NCBI GenBank assembly: GCA_041906505.1
Contig: JAYRJB010000001.1
Location: forward strand, 10,585 to 74,584
DNA: 64,000 nucleotides
Source of the DNA: Candidatus Saccharimonadales bacterium
Lineage (GTDB): Bacteria > Patescibacteriota > Saccharimonadia > Saccharimonadales > 2-12-FULL-41-12
Reading direction: 5' to 3'
Within the stretch, counting starts at the first letter, position 1. The number at the start of each line of letters is the position of its first letter. Below, piece by piece: positions 1,978-33,749 of this stretch. The position numbers and the translations under genes were made by a program. The notes under the pieces are model-generated. The model saw only the letters and a program-made list of their open reading frames with translations, ran no database searches and had not been told where the DNA came from.

Positions 1978-1983
1978 TAGCCT

Positions 1984-3898: not shown

Positions 3899-5217
3899 GT
3901 CAGCAGCTCCCGCTTTTGACCCGTTAGTTTTTCCCAGCGCTTCAAAGCTACCTCGGCATAGACAGGAGACTTCTCCATGATGTAGCAACGACGATTTAGC
4001 TTACTGCTGGCGATTAGCGTTGATCCGCTACCACAGAAGGGCTCTACCACTAGGTCACCACGCTTTGTGAGCACCTTGATATATGGAATTAAGATCTCCA
4101 ATGGCTTGGTGCCAAACACCACGCCTTGACCGGAGTGTTTTTCATCACTAGCTTGGAATTCTATAAAGTCGGTTGGTTGGTATTTCTTACCGCCTTTGTA
4201 ACCCTCCCATTGGGGTTTGCCGCTGATGGCATACAGTGCCGTTTCATGCTCCTCTTGCAAACCAGCTGACTCTTCATCGTGATTGTAGGGTATGGCGCCG
4301 CTGCCGCCGACCATGGCGATGTCATGTTTGCTAAAGAACTTGTATTTGGCACTAAAGCCCTGGTGTCGGTTGGGTAAGTGCCAGACGATCATGTTTTTGA
4401 CTTTCCAGTACTTTTCCATCTCAGCCCATATGACACGGAGGTTCTTCCAGTTTTCATATACTATGATGCTGTAGTCAGGCTTAGCGTACCTAGCAACATT
4501 TGCCATCCAAAGTTCTGTAAAGTTATCAGGCAGTTCGTCAGTCTCAAGGTAGCGGCGATTTTTCTTAGCCCCAAAGCCGGTAGTTGGTTTGCCGCCACGC
4601 TTGGCGTGCAAGTAATCTAAGATGTAGGGTGGATCGGTCATGCACATGTCTGCAGACTCGCCGTTCATAAGCTTATCGAAATCTTCTGGTATAGTACTGT
4701 CACCAACCATCAGGCGCGAATCACCCAGCTTGTAGACGTCACCTTTCTTGGCTTTAACTTGCTTGATATCTAGCTTCTTGAGCTCTTTTTCGAGATCAAA
4801 ATTCTCTGGCTCGTCCACTTCGATATCAAAAATAGTATCCAGCTCCTCACTGCTGAAGCCGATATCATCCAATAGGGATTCATCGAATTCGGACAATAAA
4901 TCCCAGTCCCAATCACCTTGGTTTTTGTTGAGCCGAAGGTTCAGCTCTCGCTCTTTTTCTTCCTCTGGAATATCCAGATACACCACTGGCACTTCGGTTA
5001 AACCCAGATCTTTAGCCACCTTCAGCCGAAAATGCCCACCGATCACGATGTTTTTGCGCTGCTGCGAACCGTTAACCAGGATTGGGTCAACCAGCCCGAA
5101 CCGCTTGATGCTTTCTGTTAGCTGTTCCGTGGTGTCTTCATTCCACGATCGTGGATTATAATCGGACGGTTTGAGGTCGCCGATTTTCACCTGTTGTATT
5201 GATAATTTGCTCGTCAT
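3895..5217 (-). CDS. ParB-like nuclease domain fused to N4/N6 DNA methyltransferase (phage type)
   Basis: The N-terminus is ParB-like (DYNPRSW, GGHFRL). It has the catalytic MTDPPY motif and a C-terminal SAM motif EPFCGSGSTLIA. The start at 5217 is preceded by AAGGAG. Confidence 0.8.
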   Translation of the reverse strand: MTSKLSIQQVKIGDLKPSDYNPRSWNEDTTEQLTESIKRFGLVDPILVNGSQQRKNIVIGGHFRLKVAKDLGLTEVPVVYLDIPEEEKERELNLRLNKNQGDWDWDLLSEFDESLLDDIGFSSEELDTIFDIEVDEPENFDLEKELKKLDIKQVKAKKGDVYKLGDSRLMVGDSTIPEDFDKLMNGESADMCMTDPPYILDYLHAKRGGKPTTGFGAKKNRRYLETDELPDNFTELWMANVARYAKPDYSIIVYENWKNLRVIWAEMEKYWKVKNMIVWHLPNRHQGFSAKYKFFSKHDIAMVGGSGAIPYNHDEESAGLQEEHETALYAISGKPQWEGYKGGKKYQPTDFIEFQASDEKHSGQGVVFGTKPLEILIPYIKVLTKRGDLVVEPFCGSGSTLIASSKLNRRCYIMEKSPVYAEVALKRWEKLTGQKRELLT

Positions 5218-5251
5218 ATATGCTCCTTTTGTTAAGTTATGACAAACCAAT

Positions 5252-5283
5252 TAAAAATCGTCCTGACAAAAAATATCAGGACG
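5252..5283 (-). terminator. rho-independent terminator (minus strand) between the wHTH gene and the ParB-methylase gene
   Basis: An 8-bp stem CGTCCTGA/TCAGGACG (5259-5266 / 5276-5283) is followed on the minus strand by ATTTTTAA. Confidence 0.55.
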
Positions 5284-5308
5284 AAAATGGGTCGAATGAG
5301 GGGCGAAA

Positions 5309-5905
5309 CTACTGTAAGTAGACCAGCCCTTTGGCAGCAATGCCTTGACCTGGAGGTCGATCGTAATCCAATTTGTAGCCTTGCTGGCTAAGTTGCCACT
5401 TTAGATCTTTGAAGTCTTTATCAAGCCTGTCAGTCTTTACATGTTCCCGAAGTGTTTTATAGTCTACTATTTCAGCGCGGCGATTCAGCAAAAGCTGCAA
5501 CAGCCTGCCACACTTTGATGAACTAGGGTTTAGGATTTTAAGTTCATTTCCATCAATCTTGAAGTAGCCATACTCGGCTTCTTCAACTAGTAGATATTTA
5601 TCCGGAGGTCGACCAAGACAATCCTCCGTTTGGCCAACAGGTCTTGGCACGTAGTAAATCGGCTTAAATGTAAATAAGAACCGCAATGGTTCGACTATTT
5701 TCATTATTGATTCAGTGATAATCTCAATCCAGCGTTTCATTCGCTCAGCGATTAGCTGGAGTGACTTTCGCATTGGCTCCATGTACTCATGGAGCACCTT
5801 AGCTGCTGTTACTTGGGCAGAAAGAGCATTGTTCATTGCCGCAGCGGTTGCGCCAAAGTTGAAAGCAGATGCTACTTTTATTTGAAGTGATTTGTTGATA
5901 TCCAT
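5309..5905 (-). CDS. hypothetical protein with possible C-terminal winged-helix DNA-binding domain
   Basis: The ORF is trimmed to Met70 (MDINKSL...), which has a GAGGT RBS. The C-terminal LLNRRAEIVDYKTLREHV...GQGIAAKGLVYLQ resembles an OmpR-type wHTH. Confidence 0.4.
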   Translation of the reverse strand: MDINKSLQIKVASAFNFGATAAAMNNALSAQVTAAKVLHEYMEPMRKSLQLIAERMKRWIEIITESIMKIVEPLRFLFTFKPIYYVPRPVGQTEDCLGRPPDKYLLVEEAEYGYFKIDGNELKILNPSSSKCGRLLQLLLNRRAEIVDYKTLREHVKTDRLDKDFKDLKWQLSQQGYKLDYDRPPGQGIAAKGLVYLQ

Positions 5906-5924
5906 ATCATTAGACCTCGCAACT

Positions 5925-6236
5925 CTAACGAACCCCACAAGGTGGGTTATGGAATTCACGTACAGCAGATTCAAGCGCCATCCTATCTGCAGCGCTACAG
6001 TAACATGCCGACACATATAACTTGTCACTAACGTGTAGATTCCACTGGTCCTTGCGGTTGTGTGAATTGATGCGATTTTGGACGTCTTCAGACTCGCCGA
6101 CATCCAGAACACGGTGTAACCCGTTTACTATTGTTGTTATTACGTATACCCCTGACTGCGCCAAAAGTGAAGCGATTGAGGTATGAGGACCGTCGAACTG
6201 TACTGGCCCTTGTTGAGTGTGAACGTTTAAGCTCAT
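5925..6236 (-). CDS. small hypothetical protein, weakly GIY-YIG-like
   Basis: SGVYVIT...VLDVGESEDVQNRINSH loosely fits GIY...YIG...R...H. It has a GAGAGGG RBS and is the first gene of the leftward operon from the switch region. Confidence 0.35.
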   Translation of the reverse strand: MSLNVHTQQGPVQFDGPHTSIASLLAQSGVYVITTIVNGLHRVLDVGESEDVQNRINSHNRKDQWNLHVSDKLYVSACYCSAADRMALESAVREFHNPPCGVR

Positions 6237-6313
6237 GATTACCCTCTCTTAGTTGTTAAATTTTGCTTTTGTGTATCCCGGTGCTCCACCTTGCACTTTG
6301 ATCACTATCTTAT

Positions 6314-6386
6314 AGTTTAGCTAACCGTAAAAGGGGTGTCAACAGATTTGTTGACACTTGAGTAATTATGACGTTATATGTATAAT
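6314..6386. promoter_or_regulatory. divergent promoter pair sharing one palindromic operator
   Basis: The perfect inverted repeat GTGTCAACA-gatt-TGTTGACAC lies at 6336-6357. Each arm holds a TTGACA -35 hexamer, on the minus strand at 6337-6342 and on the plus strand at 6351-6356. The minus-strand -10 TAAACT (6314-6319) has a 17-nt spacer. A plus-strand TATAAT at 6381-6386 pairs with a -35-like TTGAGT at 6358-6363 (17-nt spacer) and ends 8 nt before the ATG at 6395. Confidence 0.45.
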
Positions 6387-6394
6387 AACATCTA

Positions 6395-7042
6395 ATGAAT
6401 GAGACACAGGAACGAATACTAGCATTAGCAAAACAGAATGATGTTAGTGCCATGGGGGTGCGGGAGTTAGCCCGTCAACTAGGTGTACATCCACAAACCG
6501 CCAAGTATCATCGTGAACAACTAATAAAAAAGGGGCTGATACGTCGCACTGGCACATTTAAGGCATCAACGGTTGAACAGAACATATTTGACGGTGCAGA
6601 TTTAGTAACCATACCCTACTTAGGTGCTGCAAATTGTGGTCCCGCTGCACGCTTTGCTGGTTCGGAGCCTGAAGGACGTATTGGCGTATCTTCACGCTTG
6701 CTTAGAACCAAAAAATTCGGATCGCTCTTTGCTATTAAAGCTGATGGTAATTCAATGAATCAAGCTAACTTATTCGGGGAGCCAATTGAAGACGGAGATT
6801 TTGTTATCGTTGATAGCGAAGTGGAACCAAGAAAAAACGATTATGTTGTTGCAACGGTAAATAATCTAGCAAATATTAAAAAATTTGTGCCTGAGTTCGG
6901 ATCTGACGGAACTCTACATAGGATTATTCTCGTTTCTGAATCTTCATCAGAGTATGAGCCAATATTCATTCATCCTGAAGACGAAGATGAAGGATTAATC
7001 GCAGGTGTTGCTATCCAAGTTTTAAAAAAACCTATTATGTAG
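6395..7042 (+). CDS. LexA/CI/UmuD-like repressor (N-terminal wHTH plus S24 peptidase domain)
   Basis: The wHTH reads GVRELARQLGVHPQTAKYHREQLIKKGLIRR. The hinge IPYLGAANCGPA has Cys81-Gly82 where LexA has Ala-Gly (UmuD uses Cys-Gly). The catalytic Ser sits in ADGNSM (Ser120) and the Lys in ANIKKF (Lys162/163). Confidence 0.8.
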   Translation: MNETQERILALAKQNDVSAMGVRELARQLGVHPQTAKYHREQLIKKGLIRRTGTFKASTVEQNIFDGADLVTIPYLGAANCGPAARFAGSEPEGRIGVSSRLLRTKKFGSLFAIKADGNSMNQANLFGEPIEDGDFVIVDSEVEPRKNDYVVATVNNLANIKKFVPEFGSDGTLHRIILVSESSSEYEPIFIHPEDEDEGLIAGVAIQVLKKPIM

Positions 7043-7051
7043 GTACTCTTC

Positions 7052-8290
7052 ATGTCTACTGAGTATCGTAATAATCACTATGTTCCCCAGTGGTATCAAA
7101 AAAGATTTATACCCGGCATCCAGGAAAATAAAGAATTATACTATTTAGACCTGAAACCGGGTACGTTTACTGATCCGAGAGGAGTTGTTCATCAGAAAAG
7201 AGCCATTCATAAGCAAGGCACACGATTATGTTTTGCGGAAGACGACCTTTACACAACGTGGTTTGGTGATGAACGGCAAGTTGAAATTGAAAAAATATTC
7301 TTTGGAAACGTAGATGCTCGCGGGCGCGATGCAGTTAAGTTTTTTGATGAATATAAGCACTTCGAATCTAGTTGGGATGGAGATCCGCTCCGCAATTTAA
7401 TGCTATACATGAGTACTCAAAAGCTTCGCACCCCGAAGGGGCTTGATTGGCTGGCGACGCAATTAGGTACTACCGACAGGAACGCTATTTTAAACTTAAT
7501 GCTCCAATTGAGACAAATTCATTCTGCAATATGGGTTGAGTGTATATGGCAAATCGCTGATGCAAATGAATCTGACACTAAGTTTATTATTTCGGACCAC
7601 CCGGTCACCATATACAACAAATTTTTAGGACCACGAAATAAGCAATGGTGTCGAGGTTCTAATGATCCAGATATCACCCTGAACGCATCCCACACTATTT
7701 TCCCGCTATCACTTAATAAGGTGTTGATTCTTACAAATTTATCCTGGCTTAGAAATCCATATCAAAATGGCACCAAGCAACGCCCAAACCCTAACCCATT
7801 GAGGCCAGCGATGTTTAACTTTCAGCACATACAAACAGGACGATTGCTTACAGAACAAGAAGTGAGAGAGATTAATTTCATTATAAAAAGTAGATCCTTC
7901 AAGCACATTGCAGCGGCACGAGAGGATTGGCTTTATCCTGAAAAATTTGTTTCAAAATCCGACTGGAACAGTTACGGCGATGGATTATTACTTATGCCAG
8001 ACCCAAGGGGAATTGAATTCGGCGGCGAAATGATTATGGGTTGGGACGACGGCAGATCTACTGCATTTGACGAATACGGTAGGCGTCCTTGGGAAAAGGG
8101 TTACGGCCAGCATGCAGGTCATAATGAGTTTCAGACACATTATCAGTTTAAGGGTGACTTTGCTGAAAAGTTTGGTCCTTATCGTCGTGGTAGGGGTATA
8201 AGTATGGGCGACATAGATCCAGAGTTTGACACAGATAGCATGCACGAATATCACCTAAGTCTGTCTAAAAAGAATCGTCGAAAGAAGTAG
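7052..8290 (+). CDS. DUF4238 domain protein
   Basis: It has the N-terminal signature NHYVPQWYQKRF and the central ISDHPV block typical of DUF4238. It starts 9 nt after the repressor gene's stop. Confidence 0.7.
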   Translation: MSTEYRNNHYVPQWYQKRFIPGIQENKELYYLDLKPGTFTDPRGVVHQKRAIHKQGTRLCFAEDDLYTTWFGDERQVEIEKIFFGNVDARGRDAVKFFDEYKHFESSWDGDPLRNLMLYMSTQKLRTPKGLDWLATQLGTTDRNAILNLMLQLRQIHSAIWVECIWQIADANESDTKFIISDHPVTIYNKFLGPRNKQWCRGSNDPDITLNASHTIFPLSLNKVLILTNLSWLRNPYQNGTKQRPNPNPLRPAMFNFQHIQTGRLLTEQEVREINFIIKSRSFKHIAAAREDWLYPEKFVSKSDWNSYGDGLLLMPDPRGIEFGGEMIMGWDDGRSTAFDEYGRRPWEKGYGQHAGHNEFQTHYQFKGDFAEKFGPYRRGRGISMGDIDPEFDTDSMHEYHLSLSKKNRRKK

Positions 8291-8322
8291 AGACCATTAG
8301 CCTTCAGGCGTAGAATAGTAAT

Positions 8323-9516
8323 GTGTATACACATCTTAAGGAGCGCCAGTATTATGAGAATTTATATGACCGTTTAACGGTTGATTATGCTCGCGATCAC
8401 ATAGGCTATTACGATAAATTCCACGACGAATTCAAAGAAAAGCTACCCAAGGGCGAAAAGATCGATCGTCCGGGCAATGCTTTTCTACTAAACATCTTCT
8501 ATATGCAGACCATCGGTAACGAGTTGCTCCGGCGTTATGAAAACCGCGAGCAGCAAATCACCGAATGGATTGCTCTTGATGAAGTAAAAGACGACCAAAT
8601 TGAAGTGGCACGTCTCCACGAAGAGCCGTTGTGCAGCCACTGTAAGAAGCAAGGCCTACGAATCATCGACAAATCACTAATGCATCGGCGAGAAAACTCT
8701 AAGTACGATGACCCAGAAGAAGTACTATTTATGCTGAAGTGCCCGCACTGTGATAAAAACAGCGCTTTCTGGGAAGATGGCACCGCTTGGAAGGCTAAGC
8801 CAACACTATGCCCAAAATGTAGTACTGAAGTAACTCATAAAACATCTGAGTCTAAGAAATTCATCACTATTACTTACAGTTGCCCTAAATGTAAGCACAG
8901 CTTCAAAGAGAAGTTAGATATTGGCACTAAAGAAGAAAGACCCGATCCAGACTTCGAAAAAGACCGTGCCCACTACTGTCTGCATGACAAAGAATTCCGG
9001 GATCATTTATTTGCTATCAGAAAGGGTTTTGAGGATATGGCTCGGCTCGGCAAGGAGATGAAGGAAAAGCAAGACAACAAGCACATCTATGATGCCGTAA
9101 AAGAAATGAAGAAGCCAAAAATTGCCGAGCTGATTCCTCTATTATCTGAACCATTGGAAAAGGCTGGTTATATTGAGTTTCACTTGGATAAACCCGAGAT
9201 GGGGCGCGATGTTTATGTAGGCTTCAGCTGCCTTGACAGCAAATCTGACCGAAATGATTACGACAGCAGAAAGACATTGAAAAAGCTAGTCGATAGTGCA
9301 CTTGAGGAAACTAACTGGCGACTGATGAGTGATGGCATCTCATATCGGCTAGGCTACCTTAACGGCCGCGTTAGAGCATATGAAGCCGAAGAGGATCTGA
9401 AAAACCTGGTTATGAAGAGCAAGAAGTTGAAGCCCAAGCAAACAAGTGGCAAGGTTATCAACAAAGGCAACGAAAAGACGCTAAAAGCTCCAGATGGCAC
9501 TGAAATAATTCTATAA
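8323..9516 (+). CDS. hypothetical protein with two zinc ribbons (4 x CxxC)
   Basis: The CSHC, CPHC, CPKC and CPKC pairs lie in residues about 104-191, and no catalytic motif is recognised. It has a GTG start 32 nt after the DUF4238 stop with a weak RBS, and no other in-frame start is available. Confidence 0.55.
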   Translation: MYTHLKERQYYENLYDRLTVDYARDHIGYYDKFHDEFKEKLPKGEKIDRPGNAFLLNIFYMQTIGNELLRRYENREQQITEWIALDEVKDDQIEVARLHEEPLCSHCKKQGLRIIDKSLMHRRENSKYDDPEEVLFMLKCPHCDKNSAFWEDGTAWKAKPTLCPKCSTEVTHKTSESKKFITITYSCPKCKHSFKEKLDIGTKEERPDPDFEKDRAHYCLHDKEFRDHLFAIRKGFEDMARLGKEMKEKQDNKHIYDAVKEMKKPKIAELIPLLSEPLEKAGYIEFHLDKPEMGRDVYVGFSCLDSKSDRNDYDSRKTLKKLVDSALEETNWRLMSDGISYRLGYLNGRVRAYEAEEDLKNLVMKSKKLKPKQTSGKVINKGNEKTLKAPDGTEIIL

Positions 9517-22195: not shown

Positions 22196-22852
22196 TTATA
22201 GCGTCTTCTTTGTTGTTGAATTGTCACGACGCCATTCTTCGATCTTGGCGTGGTTTCCTTCCAGGAGCACCCGCGGAACCTTCATCCCGCGAAATTCCTC
22301 GGGTCGAGTATAGTGTGGGTGTTCTATGGTATGACCGTCTGAAAAGCTTTCTTGTGCCGCGCTGGTTTCGCCACCAAGCACACCAGGCAGCAAACGAACA
22401 ACTGAATCAACCAACACCATTGCAGGAAGCTCGCCCCCCGTGACGATGTAATCACCAATTGAGATGGTTTGATCAATGATTGACAACACCCTCTCGTCAA
22501 TCCCTTCATAGCGCCCACAAACAATGATCATCCCCTTTTTTTGATTTGCAATTTCTTGAGACAGGGCTTGCGTAAGTTGCCTACCTCCCGGCCCCATGTA
22601 GTAGGTAAGGGCTGTGGGGTCTTGCGTTTTCGCATGTTCAATAGCAGCAAAAAGGGGTTCGGGCTTTAACAGCATTCCATCCCCACCGCCGTAGAGAATA
22701 TCATCTACCTGCTTTCTTTCGCCAACTCCGAAATCGCGAAGGTTGATATAGCTGTAGTCAACAATACCTTTGAGTTTTGCCTTATATAGCATGCTCGCCT
22801 CAAGGGCGCTCGGAAACATGTCGGGAAAAAGCGTGATAATCTGAATTTTCAT
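22196..22852 (-). CDS. trmD: tRNA (guanine37-N1)-methyltransferase
   Basis: It contains [23 protein letters not shown] and [16 protein letters not shown]. Confidence 0.9.
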
Positions 22853-22871
22853 CTTTACTTACATTATATAG

Positions 22872-22896
22872 AAAAACCCCAAAGAAAGGGGTTTTT
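22872..22896 (-). terminator. hairpin terminator between the KH-protein gene and trmD
   Basis: The stem AAAAACCCC / GGGGTTTTT has a 7-nt loop. On the minus strand a T-run closes the stem, and TATAAT lies just before the trmD start. Confidence 0.5.
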
Positions 22897-22987
22897 CTAT
22901 CACATAAAGCTCCCATTCAACGCCTGTGAATGTCTCGCTGAGCTTTTTTTGTTTTTTTGTCCCTGCTTTTTCAGTGACTAGGACAGA

Positions 22988-23422
22988 TTATACATCAAGA
23001 TCATCAAGATCTTCTAGTTCTTTCCTCGTCTTCGCAACAACATCACTCTCTTTTTCCTCGACAAGTTCATCGACAACTTCGTCTTCGTCTTTTTTCTTGC
23101 TAACACCGGATTCTTCCCTCTTTGACCAAGACTCATCCCCTCGATCCTCTTGTTTGCGTTGCTCGGGGGCAACTCCGTTATCAACAATTTTCAAGTTGTA
23201 GCGGGCGTCGTTTTTTGTCCCTAAGGCTCTTAAGAGAGTTCGCACGCTTTGGGCGGTCGCACCGCGTTTGCCAATTACCCTACCCAAATCTTCTGGGTCA
23301 ACCGTCAACTCTAACAAAACACCCTTCTCATCAATTGTTCTTGTGATTTTAACCTCGTCCGGTTTGGTTACAAGAGATTTTATAACAAACTCAACAAATT
23401 GCTCGTCAATACTCACAGGCAC
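22988..23422 (-). CDS. KH domain RNA-binding protein (UPF0109/YlqC family) with acidic C-terminal tail
   Basis: It contains LGRVIGKRGATAQSVRTLL, and the last roughly 60 aa are rich in E, D and K. Confidence 0.75.
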   Translation of the reverse strand: MPVSIDEQFVEFVIKSLVTKPDEVKITRTIDEKGVLLELTVDPEDLGRVIGKRGATAQSVRTLLRALGTKNDARYNLKIVDNGVAPEQRKQEDRGDESWSKREESGVSKKKDEDEVVDELVEEKESDVVAKTRKELEDLDDLDV

Positions 23423-23515
23423 ACTCCTCGATTACTGTAATTAGATTAGCACTACTATTATATCAAAATCCGAACCCATCCCTGCACTTTTTCCGAAAGA
23501 TATGCAGATATTCTT

Positions 23516-24616
23516 TTAGGTTTTATGCCCAACTAGCTGCCGACGTTTTATGGTCGCGGCATATTCTTTTCTTAACCACTTGAGCCCATCGATTATGAAT
23601 TCTCTTTCGTCTTGAAACTCTTTTTTCGACATTTCAAAAAAATGCCTTTGGTCTCGTCGCTCTTTTAAGGTTTCAGCATGGCCATTAAGCCCTATTTCGG
23701 TTGCCAGCTCTATGCAGGTTTCGACCATTTGGTCCGTTTCATAGACTTCGTCCTCATCAAGAAGTGACGGCTCTTTTTCGACCGCATATTGTCGAACGGC
23801 ATCCAAGAAGCCAGTCCCTTCTTCGGATACACGCATGTTGGTAGTCTGACCATCATGATTTTTTTTGACTTCGACGTAGCGTTTCTCATACACGAGGGCG
23901 GTGAGCTTTCGTCCAAACACGTCGGGCTCCATTTCAAGCTCTGTGGCAACGTCGTGGGAGCAGGGTATGTCATTTGTTTCAAAGTACAACCAATTGCCAG
24001 GGTTGCCCTTTCTGAGCGCTTGATCAGAAATATGCTCAAGTATCTTGATCGTCGTGGGCGCGTTTAGATATGATTTGTTAATTTTTTGCTCTGACTCATC
24101 TTCTTCGCTATAACTCTTGACAGCTTCATACACCGTCTCTACTAATGAGGAGCCGCTAGCGGTGAGGCTCAGTTCACTCTCGTCATCACTGTGCGCTATA
24201 TAAACTACGGCATTTTTGGCTTCAAGGCGTTGACTGGCGCGCGTGTAGGTATCTGGGTCAGACTTTCTACCGAACAGATCTCGAACTACAAGATGCGGCT
24301 TAGGTGCCAAAATAACACCTTGATTTTGATCCAAAGCGACCAAAATTTCTTTTTGGCAAATTCCGAGCTTAGTTTTTTTATGATCAATATGTTCTGGAAG
24401 TGTCACATTAATTGACGCTAAAACTCGGGAGCTAAACTCCTTCAACAAACCTGGGTCGGGGTTAGTTTGGCCATTTACACCAAAGCCTTCACCTAACTGT
24501 TCGAGCCAAAGTTGGCCACTAACAGCTTCACCGTGATCAGCAGTAACGCCTCGGAAATGGCTGTCGAGTTCTTGATTCCCACCGCCAGTTAGTTGTTGAC
24601 TCTCTGGACTTTTCAT
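23516..24616 (-). CDS. acidic hypothetical protein, possibly two winged-helix-like segments
   Basis: The ORF is trimmed to Met50, which has an AGAGGA RBS. No recognisable catalytic motif is present. Confidence 0.45.
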   Translation of the reverse strand: MKSPESQQLTGGGNQELDSHFRGVTADHGEAVSGQLWLEQLGEGFGVNGQTNPDPGLLKEFSSRVLASINVTLPEHIDHKKTKLGICQKEILVALDQNQGVILAPKPHLVVRDLFGRKSDPDTYTRASQRLEAKNAVVYIAHSDDESELSLTASGSSLVETVYEAVKSYSEEDESEQKINKSYLNAPTTIKILEHISDQALRKGNPGNWLYFETNDIPCSHDVATELEMEPDVFGRKLTALVYEKRYVEVKKNHDGQTTNMRVSEEGTGFLDAVRQYAVEKEPSLLDEDEVYETDQMVETCIELATEIGLNGHAETLKERRDQRHFFEMSKKEFQDEREFIIDGLKWLRKEYAATIKRRQLVGHKT

Positions 24617-24717
24617 ACGCAGTATTTCCTCTATTATAAAAGGTTCGGTTATATTACACAAACTTGAAATATCTTTCGTGTTATAGTGAAAGCTTAAGCA
24701 CACGAGAGGAAATAAGC

Positions 24718-24978
24718 ATGCCAAATTCAAAAGATCAATCTGACCAAGAACACCAACACGCACATATTCAATTCAACATTGACGTTCAGAAAACCCCTAC
24801 TCTCTACGCGGATTCATACCTTATAGTCTCGAACGAAAACGCAGTTACCCTCAATTTTGCTCAAGCCATGCCCGACCCAAAGCAACAAAACATTGTCTCT
24901 CGAATTGCAATGAGCCGAGTCCAAGCAAAGGAGTTTGTGAAAACGCTCGAAGACCATATCGCAAAATACGAAGTGTAG
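24718..24978 (+). CDS. DUF3467 family protein
   Basis: LYADSYLIVSNENAVTLNFAQAMP...VSRIAMSRVQAKEFVKTLEDHIAKYE matches the DUF3467 pattern. The ORF is trimmed to Met19, which has a GAGAGGA RBS. Confidence 0.6.
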   Translation: MPNSKDQSDQEHQHAHIQFNIDVQKTPTLYADSYLIVSNENAVTLNFAQAMPDPKQQNIVSRIAMSRVQAKEFVKTLEDHIAKYEV

Positions 24979-25003
24979 ACTCGCTTCGCTCTCACACATA
25001 ATT

Positions 25004-25028
25004 AAAGCCGCCCCAAGAGGGCGGCTTT
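25004..25028. terminator. bidirectional hairpin terminator between convergent genes
   Basis: The stem AAAGCCGCCC / GGGCGGCTTT has a 5-nt loop. Confidence 0.6.
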
Positions 25029-25052
25029 AATGACTCGGTTTTTTAGTGTTTC

Positions 25053-25586
25053 TTAGGCTTTTTTGAGTTCTTTTCGAACAGTGTTGGCCTCGATGGCAGC
25101 TATCACAAGTGCAATACCTCCCGCAATGGTACTAAGACCGATTAGCCACACAAGTGCAATCGCACCTTCCTTGGGGTTCGCAAAAATATAGAACCCAAAG
25201 ATCGTATAAACTACCCCCGCAAATATTTGGAGCCAGTTATTTTTTCCTTCAAAGCCAGCAACCACTTGAAGCATACCGACAGCAACTGCCCAAATGGCAA
25301 TTACCGTGAGCGCCACGAGCGCACTGATTTGCGGATTAGAAAAAACATAAAGCCCTGCCACCGCGCTGATTACACCGACGAGTGCTGTCCCAGCCCAGCT
25401 GCCTTCACGGTTTGCAAATGCCCCAACCAACATAACCACACCAGCGGCAAGCAAATAAACCCCTAGCACTACCAAAAATGCTTTTAGGGTGATGCCTGGC
25501 CACGCTAAAATAAGCGCACCAAAAATTACCGACAGCGCCCCCCATAGGCCCAGTGCCCACGAAGCTGCCTTTAGTTCACTTTGCAT
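25053..25586 (-). CDS. HdeD/DUF308 family membrane protein
   Basis: It has a repeated-TM pattern with GALSVIFGALILAWPG. Confidence 0.65.
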   Translation of the reverse strand: MQSELKAASWALGLWGALSVIFGALILAWPGITLKAFLVVLGVYLLAAGVVMLVGAFANREGSWAGTALVGVISAVAGLYVFSNPQISALVALTVIAIWAVAVGMLQVVAGFEGKNNWLQIFAGVVYTIFGFYIFANPKEGAIALVWLIGLSTIAGGIALVIAAIEANTVRKELKKA

Positions 25587-25673
25587 TGTATCTCCTCCCT
25601 TAGCTTTGTAACTGCACTATACCACTACGACTAACAGATACAAACCATAAGCATTTTCGATTTCTTTAGAGAC

Positions 25674-25844
25674 TTATTTTTCTACCCGCACGTCTTTAAA
25701 TGGTGCTCTGTCAGATTTTACGTTTATAAACTTGCCTGTCTTGGTATCTCTCTCAACGTAGCGCTTAGTTTTCGGATTGAACGTTTGTGATCGGCCTGTT
25801 ATGCGCCCTATTCTGCCGTGTCCCTTTGGTCCATTCTTTGCCAT
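25674..25844 (-). CDS. small basic protein (56 aa), absent from the ORF track
   Basis: My own translation is MAKNGPKGHGRIGRITGRSQTFNPKTKRYVERDTKTGKFINVKSDRAPFKDVRVEK. A GGGGGAG RBS lies 3 nt upstream of the ATG. Confidence 0.5.
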   Translation of the reverse strand: MAKNGPKGHGRIGRITGRSQTFNPKTKRYVERDTKTGKFINVKSDRAPFKDVRVEK

Positions 25845-25968
25845 GACTCCCCCAATTGCTTATCTTTTGATGCACGCACATAATTAGCTGTGCGCTCATC
25901 ACTATTTTATCAATTTCTCAATATTTTCTTTTAGAAATCTTTTCGTTTTTTCGTGATAGTCTTTATCT

Positions 25969-26904
25969 ATGGAATCAAAGTCTTGGCACAACCCCGTTTT
26001 CAAAAAACTTGCAGCTTCTGAGCTTGGTGGAAGTAGTGGGCATACTTCTGGGATTGTGCCAACAAAAAGTACCCAGAGCTATTTTGGAACACCCAAAAAG
26101 CAAGAAACGCACAAAATACACGAACTCGTAATTGAGTTTTGGCACGATGATGCCAGCAAAGTAATTACAACAAACGTGAACTATTTCCTTGCACCACCAC
26201 ACCACGACCACATTCACATTACCGGCAATATTCTTCCCGCCTACAAGGAGGCTGGGGCCAAAGTTGGGGATATATTGGTTTTTTGGAAATCACGAAATGA
26301 CGAAACTGACTTTAAGGCGGAGCTTATTGCGAAGAACTCTGAGCGCTGGATCGAAGCGGAGAAACACGGCAGCAATCTTTCCCTCCCAGGTGGCGCGCTT
26401 CAACTAAGCCCTCCCGGGTTATTAAGCTCAAAAGACTTTGAGGTCCTCGAGGATACGAGCGATTATGCAATTGTCTCTGCTATCGAAGATACATTTACTG
26501 ATAATAATTTTCCGACAGTCCCGCGCGAAGGAAGAAAAAAACAAGGCGAGAGATACATCACCTATCGTAGCAAACGAAAAGGAGATTATGCGCTAAAAAA
26601 ACAGAGTTATGTGTGTCAAATTGATTCGAGTCATAAAACTTTCATAACCCCAGTTGGTGTTCCCTACATGGAAAAGCATCACCTTATCTCAATGAAGTTT
26701 TACGAGGAATACACCAACGACCTGGATGATATACATAATATCGTTAGCCTGTGTCCGACCTGTCACAGAAAAATTCACTACGGAAAAAAGTCTGAAGTCA
26801 GCCACATGCTTGAATTATTGCTAAAAAAACAGGGTCAAATACTTGAAGGTGCGGGCTTCTCCATCAACTTGACGGAGTTAAAGAAAAAATATGGAGTGGT
26901 TTAA
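25969..26904 (+). CDS. HNH restriction endonuclease with possible B3-like (EcoRII-N/BfiI-C type) N-terminal DNA-binding domain
   Basis: The C-terminal HNH reads EKHHLISMKF...IHNIVSLCPTCHRKIHYG. The N-terminal VFKKLAASELGGSSGHTSGIVPTKSTQSYFG resembles the B3 pseudobarrel opening motif. Its stop overlaps the stop of the convergent methylase gene (TTAA). Confidence 0.75.
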   Translation: MESKSWHNPVFKKLAASELGGSSGHTSGIVPTKSTQSYFGTPKKQETHKIHELVIEFWHDDASKVITTNVNYFLAPPHHDHIHITGNILPAYKEAGAKVGDILVFWKSRNDETDFKAELIAKNSERWIEAEKHGSNLSLPGGALQLSPPGLLSSKDFEVLEDTSDYAIVSAIEDTFTDNNFPTVPREGRKKQGERYITYRSKRKGDYALKKQSYVCQIDSSHKTFITPVGVPYMEKHHLISMKFYEEYTNDLDDIHNIVSLCPTCHRKIHYGKKSEVSHMLELLLKKQGQILEGAGFSINLTELKKKYGVV

Positions 26905-27956
26905 TTTCCCCTTTGCAGCAAAGGACTGTGAGTAAATAGAGTTTCGAGTACGCTTTTTGCAACGTTAAGCGTTATTGCGTTGCCGGCCTGTCGATATAGC
27001 TGCGTGTCAGAAACGCCGGCTTTTTGGGCCTTCTCAGCAAATGAATCCTCAAATCCTTGCAAACGAAATGCTTCTTTTGGTGTCAATTTTCTGATTCTAT
27101 TGTGGCCACTTTGTGCGGGCAGCACCTTTTTTCCATCGAATGTACCATGAATAAAGTTGTCAGAATAATAGTTATCTTGGTTTGCTCTGTGCATCTTGTG
27201 CATCGTTGCCGTAAGTGGTCTGGCATGAATCCTGTTAATCTCTGATTTCGAATAATAGCCACCGCTGCCATGCTCCAAAATAGTTTTTATCATTTTTTTT
27301 GAAAGGTAATATTTTTCATCTACCTCTTGTTCTAAAAGATGCCAAACGGTTTTGTATCGAGTTTTGCTCATTGGCTTGTCAAATTGGGCATCAGAGATAT
27401 AACGAAAATCCTTTTTTCTTTTGACGCCAATAAAGTAGAGTCTTCGCCGGTGTTGTGGCACCCCAAAATCAATGCTGTTAAGAAGCTCGGTTCTCAAACT
27501 GTAGCCAAGCTCTTCTGTCAATATTTTTACTATTCTCTCGTACGTCTTGCCTTGGTCGTGCGTCTTTATTCCCCGCACATTTTCCAAAATGAAAAAGTCT
27601 GGTTTTTTTACCGAAAGAATCTTTGCGATTTGGAAAAATAACGTGCCTCTTGTGTCTTCAAAACCGGCCTTATCTCCCATTAGGCTAAACGGCTGACAAG
27701 GAAAACCTGCGAAAAGTACATCAAATTGTGGGATATTTTTTATATCCGCCAATGAAAGTTTAGAAATATCACCGATCGGCACTTCGTTTTTATTAAGCCG
27801 AAAGTTGGCATGATAGGTTTTTAGTGCATGCGGGTCTATCTCGCTATAACCAACGCATTCTGTAGCAAACCCGATCTTTTTCGATGTTTGCTCAATCGCA
27901 GCACGAAACCCCCCAACACCCGCAAATAAATCTACATACCGAATCGGCTTTGTCAT
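26901..27956 (-). CDS. dcm: DNA (cytosine-5)-methyltransferase
   Basis: It has motif I DLFAGVGGF, motif IV GFPCQPFS, motif VI ENVRG, motif VIII QHRRRLYFIG and motif X RQAGNAI. Confidence 0.9.
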   Translation of the reverse strand: MTKPIRYVDLFAGVGGFRAAIEQTSKKIGFATECVGYSEIDPHALKTYHANFRLNKNEVPIGDISKLSLADIKNIPQFDVLFAGFPCQPFSLMGDKAGFEDTRGTLFFQIAKILSVKKPDFFILENVRGIKTHDQGKTYERIVKILTEELGYSLRTELLNSIDFGVPQHRRRLYFIGVKRKKDFRYISDAQFDKPMSKTRYKTVWHLLEQEVDEKYYLSKKMIKTILEHGSGGYYSKSEINRIHARPLTATMHKMHRANQDNYYSDNFIHGTFDGKKVLPAQSGHNRIRKLTPKEAFRLQGFEDSFAEKAQKAGVSDTQLYRQAGNAITLNVAKSVLETLFTHSPLLQRGN

Positions 27957-27963
27957 GGCTCTA

Positions 27964-29121
27964 CTATACCAACCTTTTCATAAGCGTTTTTGCAATAACC
28001 TCACTTAACAGTGGCGGTACTGCGTTGCCAATCTGGTTGTACCACTGAGAGTACGGCCCCTCAAAAATGTAGTCATCCGGGAAACTTTGAATTCGAGCCG
28101 CCTCTCTGGGCGTAAGACCACGAACTTCATACGGATGAATGTACATGTTGCAGTCAAATTTCATGTGAGATGTGATTGTTTTTGACACCTTGTTCGGATC
28201 AAGCTTAAAGTATTTATCCTTGAATATGTGGGAACGAGTTTTATAAGGCATTATGTGGGCAATGCTTTGGTGATCAGATCTTCCGCCTTGCGGCAAAAGT
28301 TTATATATCTCAAGGTCGCGGGGGTTGTTATACCGCGCCTTATGATTATAGGTGCGTTTAGGAGATTTGCCCCGGTTAATCGCAGTGATGTATTTATTCG
28401 CTGGGGACCGTGCAAAAATTTGGTCCTCAAAAAACCCACTGTCTGCCGATTCGATACTTGTGTCCCCCTTTTTTTGTCGTGCCGATAACCTCCTTAATCC
28501 CCACAGTGCATCTTTAATTGGCACAGTAGCGGCTGTTTTTGCGCGCTCTATGTCAGAAAAAAGCTGCTGCAATTGCTGGCGAGGATTTGGCAGGGCGTCC
28601 TTCCTAACACCAATGTAGATGAGCCTTTCACGATTTTGCGGTATACCATAGTCTTTCGCATTTAAGACAATATAGTCCGCTACATACCCAATTGCGTTAA
28701 ATGCATCTACTACCACAGGTGCTACCGGCAGCATTCCTTTCACGTTTTCCATAAGAATAATCTTGGGTTTTGTTATTGCAATCGCGTGTATGAACTTCTT
28801 AAATAGCACATTTCTTGGATCATTTAATAAGCGCTGTCGGTTGGCCATACTAAAGCCTTGACACGGTGGCCCACCAACCACAACTGAAATGTTGGTTTTC
28901 CGTAACGCATCGGCTTGTTTGTCGATAAAATCGTCAATATCACTATGAACAATTTTCTCTTTCGCTAGCGAGGGGTGATTTTTTCTATAGGTAAGGACCG
29001 AAGATAAGTCATTGTCGTTTGCCAAAAAAATCTCAAAACCAGCACGGCTAAATCCGAGAGACAACCCTCCAGGACCACAAAATAAATCTACAACAAGAGG
29101 TTGCTTTGTTTTTTTAGTCAT
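27964..29121 (-). CDS. dcm: DNA (cytosine-5)-methyltransferase (second copy)
   Basis: It has motif I DLFCGPGGLS, motif IV GGPPCQGFS, motif VI ENVKGM, motif VIII QNRERLIYIG and motif X QIGNAVPP. Confidence 0.9.
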   Translation of the reverse strand: MTKKTKQPLVVDLFCGPGGLSLGFSRAGFEIFLANDNDLSSVLTYRKNHPSLAKEKIVHSDIDDFIDKQADALRKTNISVVVGGPPCQGFSMANRQRLLNDPRNVLFKKFIHAIAITKPKIILMENVKGMLPVAPVVVDAFNAIGYVADYIVLNAKDYGIPQNRERLIYIGVRKDALPNPRQQLQQLFSDIERAKTAATVPIKDALWGLRRLSARQKKGDTSIESADSGFFEDQIFARSPANKYITAINRGKSPKRTYNHKARYNNPRDLEIYKLLPQGGRSDHQSIAHIMPYKTRSHIFKDKYFKLDPNKVSKTITSHMKFDCNMYIHPYEVRGLTPREAARIQSFPDDYIFEGPYSQWYNQIGNAVPPLLSEVIAKTLMKRLV

Positions 29122-29186
29122 TGCCTACAATTATAGTCTAGGGTGGCACAAAAAGTCAGGGGCGATTCTTATTTGTCCAGTCTCGC

Positions 29187-30110
29187 CTATCTGGGAAACT
29201 GAGGACACGGCGCTGGCGTAGCCGTATCGGCACGAAGACTGAGTAGTAGTTGCTCATATGAAATATTGCCCAGTTTTTGCAGTATACCTGCCGCCCGTAG
29301 TTGGGCGATTGAATTGTGCCGCTGCTTCGGTCCAAGCGACGAGTTTTTGATGCAACTGCGTACGGTGTCTATTTCTTCTGGCGTAAGCACCGTAAGATCC
29401 CTGGTGTCCAGTGGGCGCATATCAATTAGCTCCTCTTTAAAGGCCGCTGTGATCAGTTCGTCCTTTGTAAGATCGTTTTTCTTTTGGGCGTTAGAAAATA
29501 GCCGAAACTGATCAGTTGGATGTATTCCGGCTCGCTTTGTTATCTCGGCACTGGTTAGCGCAAGGGAACCTAAGAATTTGGCTTCTTGAGGTGTAAGTAC
29601 TAGAGAACTCTCTTCGCGGTTATAGGGACTCGGTCTATTAGAAGCCTTGGGTTTTGGCAAATTCATTTCCTCTCCAATTTCAACCAAATCCCGTTCAAAG
29701 TTAATAATTGCTATTAAATCATCGCCCGTAAAGTAACCCCTTGCAATCAAGGAGGGTTTTGCCGGTTCATAGGAACTTGCCCTTGTGCCAAATACGCGCT
29801 GTCCCGCAATAGAGTGTCTTGCACACAGTTCACTTATTGGTTGTTTTGGCGCAACATTTCTCTTTGCGACAGCATAAATTATTTCGTCGTGGTCTTTAAG
29901 ACCAAAGGACCAACTATTCCCCATTAGCTCCGAGAACACACCCAGGTCACGCCGGGTAATTTCGATATTTCGATGTGGTTCAAGAATTGACTCTACCTCA
30001 GAAAAGAACTCGGAAAGCGACGTTCGCTCTGGATCCATTGCGCCTTTTAGGGCATGACGAAGTGGCGTTTCGTACGCTTGCAGCCATTGCTCTTGTTGCA
30101 GTTCACTCAT
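29187..30110 (-). CDS. hypothetical protein with degenerate LuxR/GerE-type HTH-like repeats
   Basis: LTPQEAKFLGSLALTSAEITKRAGIHPTDQFRLFSNAQKK and LTPEEIDTVRSCI...SIAQLRAAGILQKLG resemble LuxR C-terminal HTH units. Confidence 0.4.
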   Translation of the reverse strand: MSELQQEQWLQAYETPLRHALKGAMDPERTSLSEFFSEVESILEPHRNIEITRRDLGVFSELMGNSWSFGLKDHDEIIYAVAKRNVAPKQPISELCARHSIAGQRVFGTRASSYEPAKPSLIARGYFTGDDLIAIINFERDLVEIGEEMNLPKPKASNRPSPYNREESSLVLTPQEAKFLGSLALTSAEITKRAGIHPTDQFRLFSNAQKKNDLTKDELITAAFKEELIDMRPLDTRDLTVLTPEEIDTVRSCIKNSSLGPKQRHNSIAQLRAAGILQKLGNISYEQLLLSLRADTATPAPCPQFPR

Positions 30111-30160
30111 TTAAAAACTACGTTACCCCAACATCATCAACCGACGCAAGCCCGCACCAA

Positions 30161-30198
30161 ACGAAAAATAAAATCCGCATCGAACGTGATACGGATTT
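30161..30198 (-). terminator. rho-independent terminator after rpsP
   Basis: The stem AAATCCGCATC / GATACGGATTT has one mismatch and is followed on the minus strand by TATTTTTCGT. Confidence 0.55.
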
Positions 30199-30243
30199 AT
30201 GTGATTGTGAGGCAATCCAAGAACCGAATGTGTTATTGCAGTT

Positions 30244-30795
30244 TTATGGCTTCTTCTGCTCGCCCTTCTCCTCTGGCGCAGCTTCTTCAACGACTGGCTG
30301 CGCTTCTTTATCGTCCACAGCAGTATCAGTTTCATCAACCGTAGCCGTCTCGTTACCGCTTGATTTCTCAGCCTCAGCGACTGCTTCGCCGTCTGCCGAC
30401 GGAGGAGTTTTTTCGACTTCTGGTTTCTGTTGATCTTCTTGCTGGGTGTTTTCGGCCTCAGTCTTCGGAGACGTCGTCTCGGCAGGCTGGTTTTTGCGAA
30501 GTTTCTCGGGATTCCTGGTTGTCCGAGAGTGTTTGGTGGGCTCTTGTACCCACTTCGGCAGTTTAATACCTTCCGCACTAAATAGCTGAGCAACCCTATC
30601 GGAAGGATGCGCGCCGTGGTCAAGATAAAATTGCGCCTTTTCTTTTACTAGTGTGTTGGTCTTGGTGTGGGGGTCATAGCTACCAAGGTGCGCAACATAC
30701 TTACCGCTCGTCGGAGCTTGTCGAACATCTTGAACAACCACCCTATATGTGGGATGACCTTTTCGACCAAGTCGTTGCATACGAATCGCGAGCAT
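30244..30795 (-). CDS. rpsP: 30S ribosomal protein S16 with about 100-aa low-complexity C-terminal extension
   Basis: It starts MLAIRMQRLGRKGHPTYRVVVQDVRQAPTSGKYVAHLGSYDPH, and the tail is rich in E, K, P, T and A. Confidence 0.9.
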   Translation of the reverse strand: MLAIRMQRLGRKGHPTYRVVVQDVRQAPTSGKYVAHLGSYDPHTKTNTLVKEKAQFYLDHGAHPSDRVAQLFSAEGIKLPKWVQEPTKHSRTTRNPEKLRKNQPAETTSPKTEAENTQQEDQQKPEVEKTPPSADGEAVAEAEKSSGNETATVDETDTAVDDKEAQPVVEEAAPEEKGEQKKP

Positions 30796-32826: not shown

Positions 32827-32982
32827 ACAATATCCATCCTTTCCTAAATGAGGTGGGCTAATAAAGTTACTTGGTATTTTACACGTAATTCCGCTTCGCA
32901 TCAAGAAATTGATATTTACAAAGCAATGGTTTTATGTAATTCAATATTGACTTTTATTGATTTTTGTGTTATTTTTGAGACA

Positions 32983-33327
32983 ATGGAAAAATATGAGTAT
33001 AACAGATCACCTTCAGTATTTGCGGCAAAAAATAGACTTATTAGGGGCTTAGCGGCTGGAGCAGGCATAGTTGCCATTGCGGCAACTGGGATCGTCGCGG
33101 CCCAAGACGTACAAGAAAAGTCGAAAACACCGATAAACTGCTATTTGAGTCCGCCCGCCGAAGCCGGTGACACCGAGTTTAGCCTATCGAGAGAAGCTTA
33201 TCCGAAATTGGACGAAGTAGATCCAAGCAATGTCGACATTGCCGTGATTCCAGGTACCATAGAGGGCGTTGGCGACGACGGGATACTCAACCAAGGCGAC
33301 ACTGTCCGGGTCTGCCTAAACAATTAA
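32983..33327 (+). CDS. small membrane-anchored hypothetical protein
   Basis: It has an N-terminal TM, two Cys residues and GDT...QGDTVRVC. The ORF is trimmed to Met46. Confidence 0.4.
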   Translation: MEKYEYNRSPSVFAAKNRLIRGLAAGAGIVAIAATGIVAAQDVQEKSKTPINCYLSPPAEAGDTEFSLSREAYPKLDEVDPSNVDIAVIPGTIEGVGDDGILNQGDTVRVCLNN

Positions 33328-33371: not shown

Positions 33372-33749
33372 GTGCGCAGATCAAACGAAGTCATATCTAC
33401 TAATTCAATCAGTCCTGCGGAACTATATCCAAGCAGAGAGGGTAGTTTGATTGCTATCGCCGCAGCGGCACTCACGCTGGTAGCGGGTTTTTATGTCGCA
33501 AAAGAATTGATGGATGAAGGGCAAACAAAGTGCAGTGGACTGCAAAAGGTTGAGGTAAGCGGCGGCGACACGGTATACGGAATTATCAACAAGAACATTA
33601 AGGTCACGGACGGCTATATTAGCTTTTCTCAAGTCCCTGTAACAGTACTCCGCTATAGAGAAGGCCAAAAACCAACCGAAGTCGAAAATGCGGGACAAAT
33701 AATGCCCGGTGACATTGCTATCTTGCCCACAACGTGTCACGAAGAATAA
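33372..33749 (+). CDS. small membrane-anchored hypothetical protein, weakly LysM-like
   Basis: It has a TM, then GGDTVYGIINKN ... PGDIAILP, and two Cys residues. It uses a GTG start. Confidence 0.4.
   Translation: MRRSNEVISTNSISPAELYPSREGSLIAIAAAALTLVAGFYVAKELMDEGQTKCSGLQKVEVSGGDTVYGIINKNIKVTDGYISFSQVPVTVLRYREGQKPTEVENAGQIMPGDIAILPTTCHEE

Follow-up and report, generated by a model that had tools for sequence, protein, structure and literature searches.

Restriction-modification (R-M) islands are known from genomes of the Patescibacteria/Candidate Phyla Radiation (CPR), including a type I R-M genomic island in Patescibacteria nzgw456 (PMC12455944). We examined an interval of eight genes that separates rpsP, which encodes ribosomal protein bS16, from a KH-domain gene (khpA-like) in a 64,000-nucleotide stretch of a Candidatus Saccharimonadales contig (JAYRJB010000001.1), referred to here as the window. 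The analysis indicated, with a probability that we put at about 0.8, that this interval is an old, fixed, and mosaic accessory islet of a Saccharibacteria (TM7) chromosome. Like the nzgw456 island, it consists of accessory DNA with a predicted complete R-M system in a streamlined CPR genome, was found by synteny and composition, and is attributed to horizontal transfer. It differs from that island in being Type II-like instead of type I, in its size of 6.8 kb, in the lack of mobility genes, in its fixation in a genus-level clade, and in its position between rpsP and khpA. The islet is of an ordinary kind and does not overturn current understanding, as R-M islands had already been described in Patescibacteria (PMC12455944). 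It does provide a clean and well-bounded case of streamlined Saccharibacteria gaining and keeping accessory DNA without mobility genes, within a string of core translation genes and with all eight genes kept under selection across a species split.

The canonical arrangement of the host locus is rpsP-khpA-rimM-trmD-rplS. The order and orientation of rpsP, KH, and trmD are kept in the window; the differences are that rimM is absent from the locus, that KH and trmD have promoter- and terminator-like signals of their own, and that 6.8 kb lies between rpsP and KH.

The R-M genes of the islet also have described counterparts. LlaJI cleaves DNA by means of a McrBC-like GTPase/nuclease pair (R1 and R2). 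It shares with the islet cassette the presence of two separate 5-methylcytosine (m5C) methylases and of a restriction protein with a B3-like recognition module, and the LlaJI structure 6c5d was the best structural match to the N-terminal domain of the islet nuclease. The islet, in contrast, encodes a single polypeptide with an HNH nuclease and lacks both an AAA+/GTPase domain and a second R gene. EcoRII and UbaLAI have catalytic domains of the PD-(D/E)XK type and not of the HNH type found here. Both of these enzymes, as well as BfiI, resemble the islet nuclease in the fusion of a B3-like DNA-binding fold to a separate catalytic domain, although sequence identity to the nuclease was only 12 to 16%. 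The closest solved HNH domain was that of the Type IV enzyme EcoKMcrA (6ghc), whose N-terminal 5mC-reading domain was unmatched in the islet nuclease, which has a B3-like N terminus and is tightly linked to two methylases. The catalytic domain of BfiI is a phospholipase D domain and not an HNH domain as here, and MnlI and HpyAV are HNH Type IIS enzymes (PMC4081073). MnlI and HpyAV share with the islet nuclease a modular construction in which HNH cleavage is combined with a separate recognition domain, and they have companion methylases for an asymmetric site, but no sequence relation was detectable beyond the HNH motif. To our knowledge, the recognition domains of MnlI and HpyAV are not known to be B3-like.

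Insertion, age, and composition of the block

The window comes from a chromosome of the Saccharibacteria (TM7) type and has a GC content of 44.9%; the named relatives closest to it are metagenome-assembled genomes of Candidatus Saccharimonadales and Saccharibacteria. The minus-strand order is leuS, two small genes, a bL32-like gene, nusB, a NUDIX gene, rnc, rpsP, the eight genes, KH, trmD, sodA, and gdh. An earlier note, made from the window sequence, had described the interval between rpsP and KH as horizontally acquired cargo within a ribosomal operon; all of the genes that it named were found where it had placed them. Loci from other genomes were anchored on TrmD (one genome per species) and on RNase III (metagenome contigs), and all window proteins were mapped by tblastn (E ≤ 1e-5) onto the resulting 160 loci (L001 to L160). 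The distance from the start of rpsP to the start of KH was 462 to 733 bp (median, 551 bp) in 34 related, island-free Saccharibacteria contigs, whose RNase III was 60 to 77% identical to that of the window, compared to 7,379 bp in the window. None of the eight islet proteins had a match at this threshold in any of the 160 loci. The closest island-free contig (L082; 90%, 80%, and 72% amino acid identity to the window for KH, rpsP, and TrmD, respectively) had the order leuS-nusB-NUDIX-rnc-rpsP-KH-trmD-sodA, which is the window order minus the block, and rpsP also adjoined KH in outgroups from outside the Saccharibacteria. As rpsP and KH are adjacent in 34 relatives and in the outgroups, without islet homologues, parsimony favors insertion over multiple deletions. 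These results indicated that the block is an insertion relative to an ancestral rpsP-KH junction and bore out the view that it splits two normally adjacent genes.

The ends of the insertion were bounded only to positions 23466 to 30243, with the rpsP stop (30244) as the upstream limit and the extended -10 box of KH as the downstream limit. In alignments with the spacers of island-free relatives, homology was confined to the -10 box, the ribosome-binding site, and the start codon; the equivalent -10 element preceding KH in L082 was TGGTATAAT.

The eight genes, which span positions 23516 to 30110 of a block of about 6.8 kb, also occupy the rpsP-KH junction, in unchanged order, in 11 sister-species contigs (L161 to L171), as far as the contigs reach; these 11 were inspected out of 24 contigs reported to carry the marker gene. 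The contigs were derived from many samples and included two NCBI assemblies, with one NCBI contig of 476 kb. The window was colinear with one of these contigs (L162) over 17.8 kb at 86.2% nucleotide identity, a level that places the two in different species of one genus-level clade. Comparison with the sister species gave ratios of nonsynonymous to synonymous divergence (dN/dS) of 0.03 to 0.19 for the islet genes, which indicated that all eight open reading frames (ORFs), including that of the nuclease, are real genes under purifying selection. Synonymous divergence (dS) was 0.32 to 0.93 in the islet genes versus 0.36 to 0.92 in the flanks. The shared junction and the flank-like dS values indicate that the block was present in the common ancestor and has co-diverged with the chromosome, and hence the insertion appears to be old and fixed in the clade and not freshly landed cargo. 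The earlier note had proposed that the same eight genes in all related genomes would mean ancestral synteny; this arrangement was found in the nearest relatives, among which the block is ancestral, but in none of the others.

Composition and gene content provided little indication of a single mobile element. GC content was 0.417 to 0.424 at 25.5 to 29 kb, compared to a window mean of 0.449 (z of about -1.7), and the tetranucleotide deviation reached a z value of 2.6 to 3.3 at positions 26001 to 28500 (the nuclease, the methylase gene M1, and part of the methylase gene M2; GC, 0.417), the second highest in the window. Deviant composition was not seen across the whole block but only at 26.0 to 28.5 kb, and the segments at 23.5 to 25.5 kb and 28.5 to 30 kb had a host-like composition. 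The suggestion that the R-M part is more AT-rich than its flanks was, therefore, correct in direction, but the difference was weak, and the remainder of the 6.8 kb is host-like. Searches of Pfam, PHROG, NCBIfam, and PADLOC detected no integrase, recombinase, transposase, or phage structural match among the eight proteins. No tRNA gene was present in or beside the block, the nearest being at 40280, and a search for flanking direct repeats, as the earlier note had advised, and for inverted repeats gave only short matches at chance level. The block is thus not a classical integrative island, prophage, or transposon, for which a mobility gene, a tRNA or repeats, and deviant composition across the whole element would be expected. 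With five of the eight genes host-like in composition and two confined to the clade, the block appears to be a mosaic, in which the R-M cassette and the other genes probably arrived in more than one step. Within the block, a horizontal origin is indicated for the R-M cassette only. Of the description as horizontally acquired cargo in a ribosomal operon, there remained an insertion of DNA with a mobile R-M core, but the block is old, fixed, and mosaic, carries no mobility genes, and does not interrupt a tight operon.

Within the sister species, three contigs (L162, L163, and L171) were identical in the protein products of rnc, rpsP, and trmD, with dS values of 0 to 0.03. The corresponding values for the divergent islet genes, listed in the table, were far higher (up to 0.77), and alleles of the nuclease had 85 to 89% amino acid identity in the B3-like half versus 94 to 100% in the HNH half. 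As dN/dS was no higher than about 0.3 in the divergent islet genes, the differences represent old alleles and not relaxed or adaptive change. This diversity is likely to stem from recombination with other island-bearing lineages or from long-term balancing selection, and a local hot spot of this kind may be useful for telling strains apart.

The restriction-modification cassette and its companions

The cassette consists of two genes for cytosine-5 methyltransferases, M2 and M1, and a gene for an HNH protein. M1 starts 8 bp after the end of M2, and the two proteins are only 29% identical. The nuclease gene is convergent with M1, with a 4-bp overlap. Approximately 42 full-length homologues of the nuclease were found, with identities of 36 to 86%, some of which come from records named as Woesearchaeota or Marsarchaeota. 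In an alignment of 43 homologues, residues H237, H238, N257, C262, and P263 of the catalytic motif were invariant, and C265, H266, and H270 were nearly so. An AlphaFold2 (AF2) model built on the homologue alignment, with a predicted local distance difference test score (pLDDT) of 91, had a B3-like pseudobarrel at about residues 1 to 150, a low-confidence linker at residues 154 to 160, and then the HNH domain. Foldseek matches to the N-terminal domain were LlaJI.R1-N (6c5d), EcoRII-N (3hqf), BfiI-C (3zi5), the UbaLAI B3 domain (5o63), and plant B3 domains. The HNH domain matched that of EcoKMcrA in both sequence (phmmer E value, 2e-7) and structure (Foldseek E value, 4.5e-6).

An orthologous trio with the same convergent layout was present in an unrelated neighborhood, next to a Vsr gene, in three further contigs (L172 to L174), the one independent context that was inspected. 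Identities between the L172 cassette and that of the window were 56% for the nuclease, 65% for M1 (M348), and 63% for M2 (M386). Recurrence of the trio in an unrelated neighborhood argues that the nuclease, M1, and M2 form a mobile functional unit. The cassette has the attributes of a Type II m5C R-M system, namely, full PF00145 methylases, an adjacent nuclease with an intact motif, and linkage across contexts; the separate recognition and cleavage domains within one polypeptide of the AF2 model are those of a Type IIS enzyme. Attributes of a Type IV McrA-like enzyme were lacking, in that no match to a McrA-type N-terminal reader was found and the gene is linked to two methylases. We infer that the cassette is a modular Type IIS-like R-M system, and the two dissimilar methylases, one per strand, suggest an asymmetric target site. 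The LlaJI site GACGC was not avoided (observed/expected ratio, 0.91). The combination of a B3-like reader, an HNH cutter, and two m5C methylases is a restriction architecture that is open to cloning and characterization.

The 56-amino-acid (aa) basic protein encoded next to the cassette matched the PADLOC family PDC-S38 over its full length (57/57 profile positions; E value, 2.2e-23) and phrog_12550 (E value, 1.4e-19), and along its whole length it shared 62.5% identity with hypothetical proteins from prophages of Streptococcus and Staphylococcus. Its prophage relatives place it in a widely mobile gene pool and suggest a horizontal origin. A defense role of the PDC-S38 family is only a candidate function, and no mention of the family was found in a literature search. 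The DUF308 and DUF3467 proteins were the best conserved of the islet, with 97 to 98% amino acid identity to the sister species (97% for DUF308); the NCBIfam HdeD match of the DUF308 protein was weak and below the cutoff.

The two remaining proteins, of 307 and 366 aa, had no match in Pfam, PADLOC, PHROG, or NCBIfam. The label of a LuxR-like repeat protein, previously given to the 307-aa protein, was not supported, as there was no GerE/LuxR match even at an E value of ≤10 and a self-BLAST revealed no internal repeat; its sole faint domain match was to the Rio2_N winged helix (E value, 0.19). In a collection of 5.8 billion proteins, each of the two had only 2 relatives. When 1.84 billion representatives were scanned in full with HMMER, a single remote relative of the 307-aa protein was recovered (E value, 8e-11); the 1.7-kb contig that encodes it has no R-M genes, and part of a second related gene follows downstream. 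Both proteins thus appear to be restricted to the island-bearing clade and would represent lineage-specific gene gains that have been retained. An AF2 model of the 366-aa protein was unusable (pLDDT, 43; alignment of 3 sequences), and a reading of the sequence by eye raised winged-helix DNA-binding domains as a possibility.

Together, these features are consistent with the following sequence of events. Foreign DNA would have lodged in the rpsP-KH spacer, of approximately 100 to 300 bp, in the ancestor of the genus-level clade. M2 and M1 would be cotranscribed from the minus strand, and a single convergent endonuclease would join B3-like recognition to HNH cleavage. The B3-like domain may read an asymmetric site at which the HNH domain cuts and each strand is protected by one of the m5C methylases. 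By the usual mechanism, the methylases would shield the host DNA while the nuclease cleaves unmethylated incoming DNA. With a terminator of its own for rpsP, a promoter of its own for KH, and internal signals in the islet, the expression of the flanking genes need not have been disturbed. Since the insertion, the islet would have been inherited vertically under purifying selection, and allelic variation in the sister species that is much older than that of the flanks points to a local hot spot. A broader proposal, which we regard as speculative and rather doubtful, is that the cassette belongs to an uncharacterized modular Type IIS-like family with a new specificity, found mainly in ultra-small bacteria and archaea (CPR and DPANN-type records); that the islet is a long-lived hot spot of defense and diversity, in which nuclease recognition and 366-aa alleles are kept by frequency-dependent selection; and that the 307-aa and 366-aa proteins are new defense-associated or regulatory DNA-binding factors.

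Alternative explanations

The picture drawn by the earlier note was essentially that of a recent acquisition of a single mobile island, such as a prophage remnant, an integrative element, or a transposon, that brought in the eight genes together. R-M genes typically travel on mobile elements, relatives of the 56-aa gene occur in prophages, the R-M segment is compositionally deviant, and another clearly mobile, phage-like region occupies the first 9.5 kb of the window. Neither the islet nor its immediate surroundings, however, contain an integrase, a transposase, a tRNA, direct repeats, or phage structural genes; host-like composition of five of its eight genes and a divergence from the sister species equal to that of the flanks also count against this scenario, which is already largely refuted and which we consider very improbable. 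A search of 2.9 million viral contigs, moreover, gave matches to the HNH domain of the nuclease only; neither a full-length nuclease nor relatives of the clade-restricted 307-aa and 366-aa proteins were found. An equally slim chance attaches to the converse proposal that the eight genes were ancestral in the Saccharibacteria and have been deleted in other lineages. The block is stable and under selection where it is present, and DUF308 and DUF3467 families are known from many bacteria. Yet many independent clean deletions would be required, since rpsP and KH adjoin each other in 34 island-free relatives and in the outgroups with no remnant of any of the genes; the R-M cassette is demonstrably mobile, and the identity values suggest that the island-bearing clade is a shallow branch nested within island-free lineages. 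An assembly or binning artifact, in which a chimeric contig places foreign DNA between rpsP and KH, might be suspected from the evidently metagenome-type source genome and from the contigs of three GTDB relatives, which stop exactly upstream of KH. The same junctions and gene order in 11 independently assembled contigs from different samples and assemblers, including that of 476 kb, refuted this explanation, and its probability is negligible.

A further alternative concerns the HNH protein, which might be a methylation-dependent Type IV McrA-like nuclease, in which case the methylases would be orphans or part of another system. EcoKMcrA was the best match of the HNH domain in both sequence and structure, the best PADLOC match was to mREase_IV (E value, 2e-8), and several homologues were named "5-methylcytosine-specific restriction enzyme A" by JGI. 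These matches, however, span the HNH domain only (about residues 200 to 283), and the N-terminal domain has the B3-like fold used for sequence recognition by EcoRII, BfiI, UbaLAI, and LlaJI.R1 and not the N-terminal domain of McrA. Tight convergent linkage with the same methylase orthologues, with the 4-bp overlap, was found in at least one unrelated neighborhood (L172 to L174). An m5C-dependent nuclease beside two active m5C methylases would also be liable to self-toxicity, which counts against this assignment. We consider a Type IV nuclease unlikely, though less so than the alternatives for the block as a whole.

Several observations weigh against the reading of the interval as an old, mosaic islet with a functional Type IIS-like system. 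None of the genomes found was intermediate in carrying only part of the block, and stepwise assembly is deduced only from composition and the distribution of homologues. The nearest island-free relative has diverged too far for its spacers to be aligned at the nucleotide level, and the ends of the insertion are bounded and not exact. A scan for underrepresented k-mers gave no convincing asymmetric motif and no usable signal for the target site. In a JGI contig of the island-bearing clade (L176:754-3208), M2 was present as two ORFs (284 and 95 aa) and the nuclease call was only 83 aa, which may mean that the R-M system is decaying in one population or that the contig contains an assembly or frameshift error. 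Finally, the within-species divergence was measured on metagenome contigs and could be distorted if strains living together were assembled into chimeras.

Feature coordinates, junction signals, and flanking regions

Features of the islet and its junctions (window coordinates; dN/dS against the sister species and dS within the sister species are given where available)
Feature	Coordinates	Strand	Evidence and remarks	dN/dS	dS within sister species
rpsP (bS16), upstream flank of islet	30244-30795	-	Pfam Ribosomal_S16; comparison with L082 and L004		
Intrinsic terminator-like hairpin and T run after rpsP	30161-30198	-	11-pair stem, 30198-30171		
307-aa protein	29187-30110	-	No Pfam match	0.12-0.14	
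Promoter-like site just upstream of M2	29159-29130	-			
M2, DNA cytosine-5 methyltransferase, 385 aa	27964-29121	-	PF00145, 236 bits (cutoff 22); TIGR00675, 208 bits	0.08	
M1, DNA cytosine-5 methyltransferase, 351 aa	26901-27956	-	PF00145, 280 bits (cutoff 22); TIGR00675, 300 bits	0.05	Up to 0.18
HNH protein, 311 aa, candidate restriction endonuclease	25969-26904	+	Pfam HNH, 26 bits (cutoff 21.4)	0.10-0.14	0.11-0.29
56-aa basic protein, K+R 29%	25674-25844	-	PADLOC PDC-S38; phrog_12550		
DUF308/HdeD-like membrane protein, 177 aa	25053-25586	-	PF03729, 3 repeats	0.03	
Perfect 13-bp inverted repeat between convergent DUF308 and DUF3467 genes	25001-25031		Likely bidirectional terminator		
DUF3467 protein, 86 aa	24718-24978	+	PF11950, 41 bits; 86 aa in all sister contigs	0.03	0.42-0.52
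366-aa acidic protein, D+E 17.5%	23516-24616	-	No family match; most polymorphic of block (77-80% aa identity within sister species)	0.19	0.66-0.77
Extended -10 element of KH gene, TGATATAAT	23457-23465	-	Marks downstream limit of inserted DNA		
KH-domain gene (KhpA-like, KH_KhpA-B), downstream flank	22988-23416 (GTG start) or 23422	-	PF13083, 76 bits		0.25 (in L171)
Terminator-like hairpin between KH and trmD	22868-22900		Perfect 13-bp hairpin		
trmD	22196-22852	-	PF01746, 174 bits		

The terminator that the earlier note had placed after rpsP was confirmed as a stem followed by a T run. The hairpin was kept in two sister-species contigs (L162 and L171), in which one-sided changes preserved the pairing, whereas the 92-bp rpsP-KH spacer of L082 had no such hairpin. 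Special conservation of the spacer downstream of rpsP was considered and rejected, as an apparent value of 95% came from two near-identical alignment rows and identity to the window was 85%, which is average. The true start of the KH gene is probably the GTG at 23416, on the basis of L082 and of 142-aa gene calls in L161 to L171. Both a terminator and a TATAAT were, as had been noted, present between KH and trmD. The TATAAT (22868-22863) follows the hairpin and lies only about 10 nucleotides before the trmD ATG, a position that suggests a very short or absent trmD leader. As KH has its own -10 element in L082 and a hairpin separates KH from trmD, the cluster was already loosely organized before the insertion.

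The KH-trmD spacer (window 22853-22987; L082:3340-3425) contains a conserved motif, TTGAATGGGAGCTTTATGTGATAGAAAAA, followed by the terminator hairpin, and this arrangement is common to island-free L082. The spacer was 92% identical in the sister species and had no Rfam match; an Rfam scan of 21.5 to 33.5 kb gave nothing near any gathering score.

A RimM profile was built from 59 sequences lying between KH and trmD in other bacteria, and positive controls were recovered with E values of 1e-50 and 1e-67. The profile matched nothing in the 64-kb window, nor in any of 10 Saccharibacteria loci, some with the island and some lacking it. The reported absence of rimM was thus reproduced; as island-free loci lack the gene as well, the insertion has no bearing on its absence.

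The rpsP-KH spacer was also considered as a general insertion hot spot, a proposal that was rejected because the spacer is intact in all 34 closer relatives. A distant lineage (L153) had an 8-kb rpsP-KH gap with glmS-like and sugar-nucleotidyltransferase genes. Varied small lineage-specific genes were detected in the rnc-rpsP spacer of L093, L101, L102, L106, L124, and L005 and in the KH-trmD spacer of L093, L101, L114, L001, and L002; they included a response regulator, a GIY-YIG nuclease, a NUDIX gene, and several genes without a family. The gene string around rpsP-KH therefore accepts small insertions, though the rpsP-KH spacer itself is usually intact. The contigs of the three GTDB representatives closest in TrmD (62 to 63%) end just upstream of KH (L001:1-100, L002:1-168, and L003:1-19), which hints at an assembly-breaking and possibly variable region at the same junction. 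In two of them, L001 and L002, the KH-trmD spacer contains approximately 0.9 kb of ORFs that have no annotation.

Other observations concerned the flanking genes. The bS16 protein has a long, low-complexity acidic C-terminal tail (30244-30560 region) and is 183 aa long, whereas the proteins of L082 and L004 have 128 aa. Its rate of evolution is far above that of its neighbors, with 80% amino acid identity to the sister species versus about 96% nearby and a dN/dS value of 0.12. Between leuS and the bL32-like gene, two small genes on the plus strand (32848-33327 and 33372-33749) had no Pfam match, and genes of 100 and 114 aa were called at the matching positions in sister-species contigs; the two are further lineage-specific genes of no assigned family. 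The leuS product of L163 (3923-6355), L167, L169, and L170 was about 57% identical to the window protein, versus about 90% for L161 and L162. Nucleotide identity between L162 and L163 fell to 65% at leuS, and the upstream mur/ddl genes also differed, although the contigs were otherwise near identical. Allelic replacement of the leucyl-tRNA synthetase gene by recombination appears to have occurred in some of the sister-species contigs.

A second and more conspicuous foreign-looking region was detected at positions 1 to 9516 of the window. GC content was 0.398 and the tetranucleotide z value was 3.4 at positions 1 to 2000, and GC content was about 0.41 at positions 6000 to 8500. The region encodes a TaqI_C specificity-domain protein, a PD-(D/E)XK nuclease, a terminase large-subunit-like protein, a ParB-N6/N4 methylase fusion, a LexA/S24-type repressor, and a DUF4238 protein, and it looks like a prophage remnant or a mobile defense region.

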